NCBI GenBank assembly: GCA_040954595.2
Contig: CM082578.2
Span: forward strand, 1,470,831 to 1,534,830
Length of the DNA stretch: 64,000 nucleotides
Source of the DNA: Balanoglossus misakiensis
Lineage: Eukaryota; Animalia; Hemichordata
Direction: 5' to 3'
Under the pieces are notes generated by a model. The model searched no databases, was not told the origin of the DNA, and saw nothing but the letters and a program-made list of their open reading frames with translations. Shown in pieces: positions 9,636 to 21,525 of this stretch (the first letter of the stretch is position 1; each line of letters opens with the position of its first letter). Made by a program: the position numbers and the translations under genes.

Positions 9636-11470
9636 CCGTGACGTGTATTGTACCCAACATTTCCAACCCAATCCCTATTCCAAATCCACGTGAAGGATCC
9701 CTAGTCTGGAACATAGAGGAAACTGGTGATATTCTGGTGGAGTTCAATAGCACCATTACATTCTATTGTTTGGAGGGTTTTCAACTGAATGGACAGTCCA
9801 CTCTGTTGTGTACAGTGGAAGGCCAGTATGATGCGGACTTTCCAACTTGCACACGTAAGTCAATATTTTTTTTTTTAATCAGAAAACCTTGATATTATTA
9901 TACATCTGGCATCGAGAACAATAGAATTTGGCGTATGGAAGTTGTGTGTGGTTGAACGTTGATTCACTACATATCCACATGTAGAATAACACAAACGGTG
10001 TCTTGTATTAAATATAATTAATGGAAAAAGGGCAGCGAGAGAGAGACTTTGTCCCTTAAAAAGTGATTACAGATTTATCCCAGGCTCTTCCTTCAACTCA
10101 ACTCTACGTGTATTTTCTACAGCTGCTGTCTGCAGTGAACCAGAGAGTATTGATCATGGCAGCTACGAGGTCAATGACCGCAACTACAACTATCAGAGTG
10201 AAGTGACCTATAGTTGTGACATTGGATACAACTTATATGGTAGCCATGTCAGAGTGTGTACCTACAGCAGTCAAGATGGTGATTACCGATGGAATTCCTC
10301 TCCTCCTGTCTGTCAACGTAAGTAACAGGAATGAATAATGCTATACCTTATATTCCTTAGAATTCTTTTGCATTCTATAGATTGCAATACGCATTAAAGT
10401 TATGTAGCACTCTTTGATCAACAGTTGAAACTACAGCATGAGCTTTCGGGAACATGTAGTCCCCTTCTTCAGATGCACTCGTGGAAGATTCCAAGCTCGT
10501 GCTGTAATTTCAACTGTTGATCAAAGAGTGCTACATAACTTTAATGCATATTGTACCGAAGATCACCACGGCAAAACTCTGAATTGTCATTCTATAGATT
10601 CTATCATTTCTATAGAATTCAATAGAAACAGGCTTCAATACTTCAAAGAAAATATGTGCGCTATATAAGAACTCACTATTATTATTTCTAGGTGTTGACT
10701 GTGGTTTGTTGACTGCGATTGAAGATGGCTCATGGGAATATAGTGATGGCACTTGGTATGATAGTGTTGCTACACTCCAGTGTAACATGGCATATGAAGC
10801 ACTTGGTAACACCAGGAGATATTGCACTGAAGATGGAACATGGAATGGCACCAGACCAAGATGTGTTGCTCAGGGTAACGTAGAAAAGAATATTTCTTTC
10901 AGAGAAGCAATCACTTCTGTTTGATAATAGTTATACTCTGATGAAATTCATGACATTCACACACAATGTGTTGTTTGAATACAGTGTAAAATGGGGAATT
11001 TTTGGGCCAGAAATTTTCGCAATATCAAAAAAGGCGACTGTTACACTGCGACTACTACTTTTTCACTTTCTTGTATTTCACTGCATCGTTATTTCCGAAA
11101 AACATTTTAAGCAACTTCGAAAACTACATACAAATATATAGATGTCCATAGAAATTATTTAAACTTATATAGAAATTCAAAAGGCTAATGAATTCTGTAG
11201 AATGATGTATATAGAATGTTTTTGTAAGGAATGACTTCTGTCTGAGTTGACGATTTAATATTGATAAGATACTTTGCTTCTTGACCTCAGGAGAATGTCA
11301 AGATCCTGGTACACCAGTCAACGGTCAGAGACATGGCAATGATTTCGACATTGGTTCTATAGTGTCATTCAGTTGTGACTATGGATTCACACCAAGCCAT
11401 CCAAACCCTTTGATGTGTGAAGGAGATGTTGTGACTGTGTTGCCAACAACACCTTCTACTACAACTACTG
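9636..11470 (+). CDS. Sushi exons 9636-9854, 10123-10317, 10692-10874, plus the N-terminal part of a split sushi at 11291-11470
   Basis: Sushi consensus. The last exon ([11 protein letters not shown]...SFSCDYGF...PNPLMC) lacks the Trp and 4th Cys and runs into Thr-rich sequence. Confidence 0.85.
10391..10547. mobile_element. Penelope-like element remnant (inverted partial pseudo-LTR arrangement)
   Basis: ~55-bp near-perfect inverted repeat (10391-10445 / 10493-10547) enclosing a hammerhead ribozyme motif. Confidence 0.55.
10436..10476 (-). ncRNA. Minimal type I hammerhead ribozyme
   Basis: Minus strand: GCAU CUGAAGA A GGGGAC UACAU GUUCCC GAAA GCUC AUGC. This gives stem I (GCAU/AUGC), the CUGANGA and GAAA cores, a 6-bp stem II, a palindromic AGCU stem III remnant and a UH site. 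Confidence 0.75.
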
Positions 11471-11679
11471 GTGTGTATATACTGTTGTTATAAACATCGT
11501 GGTGTGCTGAAACAGTACCGTGATAACTTCTATGTTCATGTAGTGTGATATATGGAGAAATGGTTCAGAATGCCCGCTTCCAAAACAACAGAGAGGCTTT
11601 AAAAGCAATTTGAATGTTGAAGTGAAACGTGACAAACAGAATTCAATCAGCATAACCTCTATTGCCTCCATTGTCATAG

Positions 11680-12739
11680 AAACGGAAACGGTCACAGACA
11701 TGTCAACTGCAGAGCTTGGGACGACAGAAATGGATGGAACTGATAGAGCGGCAACAGAAGAGGAAGAAGTGACCACATTGCGGATGAAAATCTCCACAGC
11801 AGCTGCAGACACAGATGTTATGAGAACCACCAAGAGAGCACAGACAGATGGCATGGTAACCACAACGGCAAAAGTACACACAGATGATGTGGCAACCACG
11901 GCGACAAAAGTACACACAGATGATTTGGTAACCACGACGGCAAGAGTACACACTGATGCTCAAACAAGAGATGCAACAGGTACGTCAAGTACAAACATCC
12001 ACTGAATATCTGAAAACAATATGACAAGTTTACTTTACAGATGTCCTCTCAGTGGAAGTGAAAGTATCTCATTTCTTTTAATTGTGGATTTTTGGTTTCT
12101 CATTTGTTAGCATAATGAAAAGCTGTATAATACAGGGGTCACCATGATTGAATTTAGTCATGGCCTTGTGTAGTTGAAAAACAAACAAACAGCTGAGTCA
12201 GCATTTCTTCACCCAAAAACATTTAACGATATTTATCTCTGAATAGACTGTGGTGACCATACAATTTTATTTGACCAATGAATTTATTTTCATTTAACTG
12301 AGCTAAATTGTCATGAAAATGACAATAGTAGTGAGTTTATATCAATCTAATCCCATGCGAAGAGACAAATGTGCACGAATTTGCGCAGTTTACAAGTTTA
12401 CGTTCTGTGTGTACATCAGTAATAGGTTGTGTAGCAAAATGTAGCAATAACATCCAAATTCCATTCCAGTCAAGTTATTTATCATATAGTTATATTAAAT
12501 AATTGATATTAAATAATCATTAGTGAGATCTATGGAATCTCACATATTTTAATGCAGAATGACTTGATTTCCATATGCAGGTTATGAGGCGCCATCAACG
12601 CAGGCAATCACTGTGACTGAAAGAAAACCAACGACAGATTCAGATAAAGAATTTACAACATCTGAAACTACTAGTGCACCACTTTCAACTAAAATATCAA
12701 CAACAAAACCAGTGACACCTTCTCATGATGTATCAACAG
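11680..12739 (+). CDS. Mucin-like Thr-rich exons 11680-11979 (33-bp repeats, TTAKVHTDDVA) and 12581-12739
   Basis: Phase 1-1 exons, open and T/S/E/D-rich. Confidence 0.75.
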
Positions 12740-13430
12740 GTAATTATACTGTGTATTCGTATAATTCGTATTCATATCAGTATTTGTCCTTTTATTGCCA
12801 CAATTTAAGAAAGGAATATATTTTGTGGCAGAGAAATGGTAAATACTTAATACCGTATACCAGTATATCTAATTTTTTACATTGGCAATATGGAGCAAGA
12901 AACATAGCATAGCGCTAGTCAAGTCTTGCCCCATTGTCACATATATAGTAATATACATTGCAATTACTGAACAATATTATGGCTTCTGCTGAATGTGTGT
13001 GTGTACCGATAAACTGTGCATATTGACTGGCAGTGAGGGCAACAGCATACATTTGTTTCCCTAAGGGACTGTGAGTCAACCCAGAACAGTCTGTTTTTAG
13101 AGGCTGAAGGCCGATGGAAACAGATTGTTTTGGGGGTAATTTGCATTCCCGAGGGGACACAAACGTATGCTGTTATCCGAACATGGCTAGTCGATATGTG
13201 TTTCAGTATCAGAAAGCAGCACAAATCAGGAAATTTCTCTGCTGTACATCATCAATTGGTCTTCATTGTAGATGATATATCACCACTGTACAAGGTCCCA
13301 TACCTGTAAATAAATGATAAAAGCTTACACACAAACACATTTCACCAGATTAGAAAATGTACCACACAAACCCATTTTAGGATATTAACTCTTCTCAAAG
13401 AATATCTTGCTTGTGTTGTTGATTTTACAG

Positions 13431-19531: not shown

Positions 19532-19954
19532 GTAAGAGATATTACCCTTAGTTTGGTTGATAACGTGTTGTATTTGAGTGATGTCTCAAAGTGTTAAAAC
19601 AAAACATCCAGAAAACTTGTTTTTGGAAGTTAATTTAAATTGCTTGTCACATAATAGTTGTGTAAACAATGGTCACACCAAAATGTTCTCCTATATTTAC
19701 TTTCAGAAAATATATACTTTTAGGGGATTCTCGATAATTAACAGAACTTGATAATTAACAGAGAAATGTTTATTTCAAAAAGTGATTTTTTTTCTTGTAT
19801 CTTTCATACACACCATGAAGTAATAATACAGTTAAATTTAAAATCAGAATAAACCACAAAGAGTTGAACCCATTTATGCTTTGAACAAATTGACCTGAAG
19901 AGAATAGGAGTTGTATGGGTCTGTATTTACAATTAATTGATAATTACTTTGCAG

Positions 19955-20957
19955 ACCGTGACGTTCCTGACTACTGTGCACAGCTTAGTGTGTCATATAA
20001 TGGTAGTGGGCAGATTACAGACCAGCAATCCTGTGGCAACTACTATGGTACAGAAATAACAACACAACTTGTTAATGGTTTAACTCAACTCCTGTCTCAA
20101 GATCCATCAGGAGCATGTGTTCCTCTTGCTGGTCTGGTTACAATCAATATCGCATTATCCATAAGTCTCACCTCGCTATCGGATAATTCGGTGGGTACTC
20201 TAACTGTCTCTTTCAGTCTTGCAGAAAATCTTGTAGACTCTTTCTGGAGTCTAGAATATTACACTCAACAAATTGTTCACTTCATAGCATTTTATCTCAC
20301 ATGCTCTTCAGATTGCATATCCAAAGAAAAAATGCATATTGGGAGAATATTTTCATGCAAATGTGACAACCATGCGATGTTTAATTTTGTCGATACAATC
20401 GATCGTAAACTGCTCAGCTGAAACAGTGAGCAGTCATCTTTCTTTTTTGTTTACGTGCGTTGGAGTGGGGATGTCTTGAAACCGTCCGCATAACAGTACA
20501 TACCTGTACACGGTGAGTTGGGGCGCCTTGAAACTTAAGGCGTATTTAACACGCGTTCCGTACGTACCGTTCCGTATGGCTTTTTAGTACACGCTAAATT
20601 CTATTGTTCTTGGTGCCAGATGCATAATAATAAAGCATATTAAACATAACATCTTTTAAAACAAATGCTTATGACTGTATTTTCATTACCTGCAGCTTTT
20701 AATGGATGTGGGGCTGAACTTACTGATTGAACCCATAGACCCATTGAGCCCTGGATACGACAATGCAGAATTGTTGGGATGTGGTCTTCAACTAATCTTT
20801 TATCTGACCAACCATCCAAGTGTATTTCCAGTTTTGGTTGCCATTGACAGTTCAGACAATTGTCCAGAACTATCATCTTCTGCAAACCCAATTCAAGAAG
20901 ATGATGCAACATTCTGTTGTCCTGAAGGATATGAGCTCTTCCAGAATGTCAGATGCA
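19955..20957 (+). CDS. uif-type SEA-like module, extra copy (exons 19955-20190, 20696-20957)
   Basis: DRDVPDYC...C.NYY...LTQLLSQ...C | ...CGLQLIF...CPELS...CCPEG. Homologous to exons 23386-23606 and 24467-24707. Confidence 0.7.
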
Positions 20958-21426
20958 GTATGTATAAAATCATTATTTTTATTCACACTAAAGTGGCGCT
21001 TATATCTCTTCTTTTCTTTTAAGGATGTATGCGCAGAACATAAACCGGAAAACTGCACGCACCCGTCTTTTTCCCATAGGATTACATTGATAATTGCTAG
21101 AAAACAAACTTCTTCTATTGTCATTGTCACAAAATTTTCTACATAGCTCAGTCCAGTAAATATAAATTCATTGGTCACTTAAAATATAAGGGTCACCTTG
21201 CTCTATTTTGAGATAAATTGCATTAAAAAAAAATTTGCCCATAGACAAACCATTGGTGAAAAATGCTGAATCAGCAGTTTTCTGCTATTATCGACTAAAT
21301 TCGTGACTCTGTAATGTGTATTTCATAAACAGGCACGGTCATCAGGTAAATGCATGCTATGAGCGGTGTGTTACAAGCATGAATTAAGTATTACTTACAG
21401 AAAAAAAATTCTTCTTATTTCAACAG

Positions 21427-21525
21427 CAGCCGCAGTGGAAGTTGTGAGGAAAAGAAGGGATGCATCTGAACAGTCATCATTTCTCACTAATGCTAAATGG
21501 AATGGCACTGCACCTGTTTGTATTG
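21427..21525 (+). CDS. Exon with a furin site (RKRR) and the C-terminal end of the split sushi (KWNGTAPVC)
   Basis: 99-bp phase 1-1 exon reading AAVEVVRKRRDASEQSSFLTNAKWNGTAPVCI. Confidence 0.8.

Follow-up and report, generated by a model that had tools for sequence, protein, structure and literature searches.

A sushi domain divided around a mucin and expansin-like cassette, ending in a candidate furin site, in the Uninflatable-type gene of acorn worms

A sushi domain divided between two distant exons

We analyzed a 64,000-nucleotide (nt) stretch of the genome of the hemichordate Balanoglossus misakiensis (GenBank assembly GCA_040954595.2, contig CM082578.2, positions 1,470,831 to 1,534,830, forward strand; hereinafter the window, in whose numbering all positions are given), which holds a large multidomain gene that, judged by its exons and domain order, is a hemichordate-type ortholog of Uninflatable (Uif). 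We consider it probable that in acorn-worm-type Uif one sushi domain, also called complement control protein (CCP) domain, carries a large cassette in the loop between its third cysteine and its tryptophan, that the two halves refold around this cassette, and that the loop is opened at an RKRR motif. With the exons re-derived from splice signals, the split domain and its immediate neighbors are as follows.

10692 to 10874, plus strand: complete sushi exon that adjoins the split one upstream (phase 1-1; Pfam Sushi positions 1-56 of 56, E = 1.7e-9)
11291 to 11470, plus strand: N-terminal half of the split sushi (Cys1 to Cys3) and start of the mucin region (Pfam Sushi positions 1-46 of 56; cross-species identity)
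21427 to 21525, plus strand: closing exon with RKRR, a 13-residue spacer, and WNGTAPVC, which supplies Trp and Cys4 (motif scan and position matrix; motif and spacing the same in the orthologs P0130 and P0158, described below)
22205 to 22447, plus strand: HYR domain exon, which follows the sushi in the orthologs too (Pfam HYR, E = 3.3e-9)

The first half-domain exon (AG/GT boundaries, phase 1-1) encodes Cys1 to Cys3 (ECQDPG...SFSC...PNPLMC) followed by a Thr-rich run, and the Pfam Sushi profile matches it over the first 46 of its 56 positions only (E = 6.9e-6). The closing exon, likewise phase 1-1, encodes AAVEVVRKRRDASEQSSFLTNAKWNGTAPVCI, which contains RKRR...KWNGTAPVCI, and the HYR exon comes next. 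All four sushi cysteines and the Trp before Cys4 are therefore present, divided between these two exons. A scan of the three forward frames from 11471 to 21600 recovered a single W-x(2,7)-P-x(1,2)-C motif, that of the closing exon. We also built a position matrix from the last 11 residues of this sushi domain in the unsplit orthologs, using 17 of 23 sequences and omitting the six without an aromatic residue at that column; across all six frames of the window its top rank fell at position 21492 (20.5 bits), and the runner-up among the 11,285 segments scored inside 11471 to 21600 reached 9.9 bits. Since the closing exon has both the unique motif and the top matrix score, we conclude that no hidden exon near 11470 completes the sushi. 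An earlier note on this DNA, made from the letters alone, had named such an overlooked exon right after 11470 as one of two findings that would overturn its reading; neither the motif scan nor the matrix found one, and its placement of the half-sushi and its completion in these two exons is borne out by the exon structure, the Pfam match, the unique motif, and the matrix.

Orthologs in other acorn worms

A search with the half-sushi exon led to Saccoglossus kowalevskii LOC100378937, represented by a 4,825-amino-acid (aa) model (P0130; XP_077862127.1) and an older one of 3,097 aa (P0125), and a search with the part of the gene that follows the split recovered, among the best 120 of 203 matches, a Ptychodera flava protein (P0158; XP_070567428.1) and Uif-type proteins of many phyla. 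The exons of the window are collinear with residues 514 to 3909 of P0158, mostly at 55 to 77% identity. The domain order is that of Uif (CTL, LDLa, three CUB domains, CCPs, EGF, CCPs, HYR, GCC2, EGF, LamG, and HYR), and the Pfam sets of P0158, P0130, and the Lycorma uif protein (P0194) agree, with F5_F8_type_C matched in P0194 and in neither P0130 nor P0158. The two FA58C domains that are a feature of Drosophila Uif are also absent in the spiralian and jellyfish members; by these sequences, the pair is lineage-specific. A C-terminal transmembrane segment is visible by eye in P0125 and P0158. After the split sushi the ambulacrarian members (P0125, P0130, P0158, and the crinoid P0168) have one HYR domain versus two in protostomes and jellyfish.

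Both Saccoglossus and Ptychodera share the split, their half-sushi being followed by mucin, expansin-like modules (three and two, respectively), an 8-Cys unit, the basic motif, WNGTAP(V/L)C, and HYR, with inserts of 1,826 aa in P0130 and 1,513 aa in P0158. The N-terminal half encoded by exon 11291 to 11470 is identical at 30 of 41 positions to Ptychodera and at 24 of 41 to Saccoglossus, and the half-domains are 66% and 55% identical to those of Ptychodera versus about 25% for mucin. RKRR or RRRR stands exactly 13 residues before the Trp in P0130, P0158, and the window, and these motifs (RKRR, RKRR, and RRRR) are the sole R-x-K/R-R sites in the three acorn-worm-type inserts, that of the window being taken in its open-frame version.

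Contents of the cassette

The modules between the two halves, all of them in the same orientation, are listed here.

11680 to 11979, plus strand: mucin exon 1 (99 aa, 31% Ser + Thr, phase 1-1)
12581 to 12739, plus strand: mucin exon 2 (52 aa, 42% Ser + Thr, phase 1-1)
13431 to 14720, plus strand: expansin-like copy 1 (exons 13431-13573, 13841-14059, and 14382-14720; a 2-nt insertion near 14478 leads to a stop)
15240 to 15851, plus strand: mucin exon 3 (203 aa, 41% Ser + Thr)
16231 to 17767, plus strand: expansin-like copy 2 (exons 16231-16373, 16651-16869, and 17431-17767; open frame)
18315 to 18926, plus strand: mucin exon 4 (203 aa, 35% Ser + Thr)
19430 to 19531, plus strand: small mucin exon that has TAA as its first full codon (downstream in-frame alternative acceptors only weak)
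19955 to 20957, plus strand: two-exon unit with 8 Cys (19955-20190 and 20696-20957), a duplicate of a downstream unit near 23385-24706

These five mucin exons, two three-exon expansin-like modules, and one two-exon 8-Cys unit sum to 3,683 nt, or about 1,228 codons. The inventory first proposed, of mucin and two expansin-like modules exceeding 1,100 aa, thus stands, and its SEA-like component is unconfirmed: neither exon of the 8-Cys unit has a Pfam SEA match, and no usable Atlas match was obtained. The unit is a copy of one that lies further downstream in the same protein (hhalign probability 97%, E = 1.6e-11) and gave no match to the C-terminal basic-site unit discussed below (hhalign probability 1-4%).

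The two expansin-like copies are recent duplicates of each other (138 of 143 and 209 of 219 nt identical in the first two exons), and together they are a recent duplication of the type that comes first in Ptychodera; no separate remnant of the second Ptychodera type was found in the window. Intron contigs specific to copy 1 are present in two low-depth contig runs (one sample, apparently a different individual's DNA), and the duplication is therefore not peculiar to this assembly. Copy 2 matches Pfam DPBB_1 at E = 0.0025, under the curated cut-off. The Ptychodera counterpart matches solved microbial expansins (PDB codes 7wvr, E = 6.5e-11, and 4jcw, E = 5.7e-7), and in it the DPBB is followed by domain 2, as in EXLX; Atlas matches link the module to EXLX1/YoaJ clusters at 0.91-0.92. 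The likeness to microbial EXLX (7wvr, 4jcw, and 2bh0) is thus one of two-domain (DPBB plus domain 2) sequence similarity across most of the module, and the hemichordate copies differ from them in the replacement of Asp by Val/Ala, the loss of an aromatic triad, the presence of introns, and the embedding in an animal receptor.

Bona fide expansins are defined, in bioRxiv 10.1101/637728, by a domain-1 Asp and a domain-2 aromatic triad. The Asp, which is the residue changed to Asn in 4js7, is gone from seven of seven hemichordate copies, HLDL aligning with GIVL, GLVL, DIVL, or DIAI. At the domain-2 positions that we take to be those of the triad, none of the seven retains it, YW/WW aligning with SS and similar nonaromatic pairs and Tyr with Asn/Asp. 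With these residues missing throughout and the insert being mostly mucin, the idea that the cassette consists of carbohydrate-binding modules is not supported. No homolog above threshold was recovered with the expansin exon query among longer proteins or with the Ptychodera expansin query among proteins of 116-371 aa, and we therefore make no donor or gene-transfer claim for these modules. The same preprint leaves undecided whether the expansins annotated in animals are genuine genes or contaminants, a question on which the present expansin-like domains, with introns and inside an animal gene, bear. Each copy in the window has a ninth Cys (NATCEKY; 13433-13573 and 16233-16373) that is absent from the Ptychodera and Saccoglossus copies and could possibly be a free thiol or an inter-copy link.

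Predicted folding of the two halves as one domain

AlphaFold2, run on the short Saccoglossus model with an alignment that included 19 unsplit orthologs, gave predicted local distance difference test (pLDDT) values of 95-98 for residues 1-50, 96-98 for residues 161-180 (the Trp/Cys4 region), and <50 for most of the linker. In a structural search, 61 residues over model range 1-174 aligned to one CCP of CD55 (Z = 10.3; root mean square deviation, 1.1 Å), and similar single-CCP alignments were obtained with CD46, CR2, factor H modules, and many others. Because 61 residues align versus about 50 in the well-predicted N-terminal part, both halves contribute to the superposition. Folded without alignments, the pair of chains expected after cleavage scored 0.38 versus 0.02 for the best control, with the runs agreeing on at least 96% of contacts and a partner pLDDT of at least 79; in this test 51 of 78 solved pairs reach the mark, as do 2 of 108 mismatched ones, and passes of 0.60 or less, such as this one, count as weak. 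By the AlphaFold2 model and the CD55 superposition of the Saccoglossus protein, then, a single CCP domain is the predicted fold of the two halves, in line with the earlier proposal.

It is conceivable, and in our view highly improbable, that the halves no longer form one domain and that the three-Cys half and the W..P.C segment are relics that pair elsewhere or link chains. Closing a loop of >1,000 residues during folding would presumably be costly, each window expansin copy has its extra Cys, and the two-chain score is weak; against this, both halves are conserved in the window and in the two other acorn worms, an insert of 170 aa is accommodated at this loop in ecdysozoans, and the model superposes on single CCPs.

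A putative furin-opened, disulfide-tethered arm

In the history that we favor, a phase-1 intron would have entered the sushi loop in the acorn-worm (possibly the ambulacrarian) lineage and allowed exon modules of phase 1-1 to build up there, and ecdysozoans would have gained FA58C at the equivalent loop independently. At the protein level, the halves on either side of the cassette would refold into one CCP, and furin would cut after RKRR, making the cassette the free C-terminal end of the N-terminal chain. The disulfides of CCP domains join Cys1 to Cys3 and Cys2 to Cys4. The insert has 24 Cys in Ptychodera (8 + 8 + 8), and the FA58C inserts have four; with these even counts, Cys2 and Cys4 are left as partners, and a bond between Cys2 of the N-terminal half and Cys4 of the C-terminal half would keep the N-terminal chain attached after cleavage. 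The cassette would thus hang as a free O-glycosylated arm from the mid-receptor stalk, like the insulin-receptor insert, and would most likely serve as a spacer within the mucus layer and a surface for adhesion, not for cellulose binding. We give even chances to the broader proposal that this 60-residue CCP is a conserved branch point of Uif, whose loop was colonized independently in ecdysozoans (by FA58C) and in ambulacrarians (by mucin, expansin-like modules, and the duplicated unit in acorn worms and by EGF and mucin in a crinoid), and that in ambulacrarians furin turns an insert of up to 1,800 residues into a disulfide-tethered side arm, its content turning over rapidly by exon duplication. 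A further basic site lies in the membrane-proximal unit of 8 of 12 proteins scanned (both jellyfish, Lingula, Dimorphilus, Potamilus, the crinoid, and both acorn worms), and acorn-worm Uif may be cut twice, at the cassette and at this site.

Alternatively, the halves could refold with RKRR unused, or with the cassette mostly spliced out, so that the loop stays closed or exists in minor isoforms. The older Saccoglossus model P0125 does jump from the first mucin to the RKRR exon, the modules are all phase 1-1 blocks and hence skippable, and the main cut in the family may be at the membrane-proximal basic site shared across phyla. Yet the 13-residue spacing is kept in three sequences while the neighboring mucin has diverged to about 25%, the motif is in a low-confidence and likely exposed region of the model, and RefSeq isoforms X1 to X3 of P0158, all of 4,527-4,528 aa, are the long form by length; we regard this alternative as unlikely.

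Several points count against the arm as we picture it. The exon joining, the cleavage, and the disulfide are predictions. The Cys parity is not clean, with nine Cys per window expansin copy and 31 in the Saccoglossus insert, whose first expansin looks cut short. The AlphaFold2 result partly reflects the 19 unsplit orthologs and the abundance of CCPs in the PDB, and the two-chain test, like AlphaFold2, can pass through likeness to solved CCPs; moreover, the folds used the Saccoglossus halves with a 128-aa insert, not the window halves or their insert of about 1,200 aa. A fold search with the insect model gave discoidin matches, with no CCP among the matches listed, and in arthropods Tyr replaces the Trp. 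Finally, the gene copy in the window carries a frameshift near 14478, the TAA in exon 19430, and a frameshift near 36108, and for this copy the window yielded no match to P0158 past residue 3909 and no further 3' exons, such as those for the second basic site and the membrane anchor.

The same loop in other animals

We surveyed the loop in 34 sequences with the full Uif-like layout, a set that excludes GCC2-only protist proteins, SVEP1-like and hyalin-like proteins, and models without the N-terminal part. The alignment of orthologs for which the earlier note had called shows a short loop, with 11-28 aa between Cys3 and Cys4, in 23 of them (17 named spiralians, 4 records grouping with them, and 2 jellyfish), an insert of 169-184 aa with four extra Cys in 8 (5 arthropods, 2 nematodes, and 1 further record), and a furin-ended insert in the 3 hemichordate models (128, 1,513, and 1,826 aa). 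The ecdysozoan insert is FA58C both by Pfam (residues 1316-1430 of P0194) and by fold (Z near 18 to discoidin domains of neuropilin and factors V/VIII), and the nematodes retain the Trp (GWNASVPQC). The arrangement that the earlier note gave for insect Uif, with FA58C after a half-sushi, proved right for all eight ecdysozoan-type sequences, a set without Drosophila itself, and the domain lies between Cys3 and Cys4.

A quick maximum-likelihood tree built from the sequence that precedes the split recovers each of the following as one clade with support of 100: the FA58C-bearing sequences, the cassette-bearing ones, and the jellyfish. Rooted on jellyfish, this tree tracks animal phyla. Because the loops are empty in jellyfish and in 21 of 21 spiralian-type sequences and the FA58C and cassette clades are separate, two independent insertions are the simpler history; on these sequences, the loop likely took inserts twice, as FA58C in ecdysozoans and as the cassette in acorn worms. 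The same facts speak against the swappable socket of the original proposal, which would amount to a single ancestral insertion site with its carbohydrate-binding cargo exchanged (FA58C versus expansin) and lost in spiralians. Such a socket could draw on the occupation of the same short Cys3-Trp loop by both inserts and on the cargo of a crinoid protein, with EGF repeats, RRRR, and mucin before WNSSIPYC-HYR, but two gains suffice where it requires a gain, an exchange of cargo, and an exact loss, and the sugar-binding residues are missing from the expansin copies; we judge it very unlikely.

In that crinoid protein, P0168 of Anneissia japonica, residues 1-810 comprise EGF repeats, then RRRR, and then a repeat mucin of about 600 aa. 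The model is without the N-terminal half; these modules are probably a third cargo of this loop, their furin motif preceding the mucin rather than following it, and this one incomplete model hints that the insertion and the furin motif date from the ambulacrarian ancestor.

Relation to known systems

The arthropod and nematode Uif proteins resemble those of acorn worms in domain order at the site (CUB, sushi, EGF, sushi, HYR, GCC2/ephrin-like, EGF, and LamG) and in the interruption of the same sushi at the same loop; they differ in that their insert consists of a single FA58C domain and lacks a furin motif, hemichordates being without FA58C, and in having two HYR domains here versus one. In the fly, Uif acts in tracheal inflation and Notch antagonism. 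The accessible text of PMC3340373 lists eight CCP and two FA58C domains for Drosophila Uif and does not mention nesting, and PMC12867482 mentions a presumed Uif cleavage site, which a guide sequence given there places tentatively near the membrane-proximal site.

The insert of the insulin receptor, about 120 largely disordered residues, sits inside FnIII-2, and the alpha and beta chains are held by a disulfide. This insert domain is the closest known mechanism: it carries RKRR and yields linked chains (PMC7039211). The likeness lies in an RKRR-bearing insert in the loop of a small beta-domain, with cut chains that stay joined and a functional end that is freed. The differences are the size and content (about 120 disordered residues versus 1,000-1,800 with folded domains) and the host domain (FnIII versus CCP); cleavage is demonstrated for the insulin receptor and only deduced for acorn-worm Uif. 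SVEP1/polydom is another sushi-HYR-ephrin-like-EGF-pentraxin protein with a SEA module and a furin site (PMC13722417); it is secreted and has a different N terminus, and none of the SVEP1-like matches screened showed a sushi that holds an inserted cassette.

We found no literature description of a split, interrupted, or discontinuous sushi or CCP or of an insert within one, with subscription papers thinly covered, and none of the nesting in titles, abstract starts, and passages on Uif or deuterostome expansins, figures and supplements lying outside this scope. The sushi split is real and conserved, and as a variant of known parts it is apparently undescribed. By convention a CCP module counts as a bead that cannot be divided, and Uif is described as a linear series of domains; if the nesting is true, the map of fly Uif needs redrawing, for its second FA58C would project sideways from inside a CCP, and the acorn-worm loop arm would exceed its host domain in size 20- to 30-fold. 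Nature would here have inserted domains repeatedly at a single site and found a route from a linear gene to branched rather than linear cell-surface glycoproteins, and the loop might be engineered to graft cargo onto CCP stalks.

State of the gene copy and its surroundings

The third exon of expansin copy 1 is 339 nt long versus 337 nt in copy 2, its 2-nt insertion producing a TAA at codon 33; joined as assembled, the exon model meets a stop at codon 427. With the TAA-opening exon 19430 as the second lesion, the cassette is, contrary to what had been claimed for it, not phase-compatible throughout, and an open frame from the upstream sushi to HYR requires skipping both exons, which leaves 1,008 aa between Cys3 and Cys4. 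Inspection of the sequence by eye revealed no phase-0 acceptor that bypasses the 14478 frameshift, and the sole contig spanning 14478 in the two low-depth contig runs is a copy-2 contig. The last matching exon of the main copy, with its frameshift near 36108, is 36075-36167.

This gene copy is either imperfectly assembled or decaying and may not itself make the full protein. That it is a decaying segmental duplicate without a full protein, the acorn-worm architecture being real all the same, is compatible with our preferred explanation and is a substantial possibility, if one toward which we do not lean. It would account for the lesions near 14478, in exon 19430, and near 36108, the lack of 3' exons in the remaining 28 kb, the lesions of a second, partial Uif copy at 47-64 kb (a deletion of about 16 nt included), and the CRQC of expansin copy 2 versus CGQC in six other expansin copies. 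On the other side, the remaining tblastn-matched exons from 3,034 to 35,371 are stop-free within their exon parts, small indels are common assembly errors, and an imperfect assembly is suggested by the exact repeats found at 47-61 kb (99.4% over 5 kb).

The second Uif copy, at 47183-64000, is a 5' half with C-type lectin, LDLa, CUB1 to CUB3, and the first sushi exon; it has frameshifts near 55262 and 63908 and the deletion just mentioned, and is either a tandem paralog or an assembly duplication. The segment 47166-52238 is repeated at 56086-61161 (99.4%), and 61546-64000 repeats 2105-4822 (96-97%). Position 2105 is where the similarity to the CUB3 intron of the second copy ends, and just upstream of it, at 2-559, is a transposase fragment (Pfam DDE_Tnp_1_7, E = 6.9e-9). 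Past the point where the gene is cut short, a repeat array with units of about 150 bp and 1.1 kb occupies 37115-40808, and exons of a CRAL_TRIO_2 domain gene lie at 43005-46086, between the two Uif copies.

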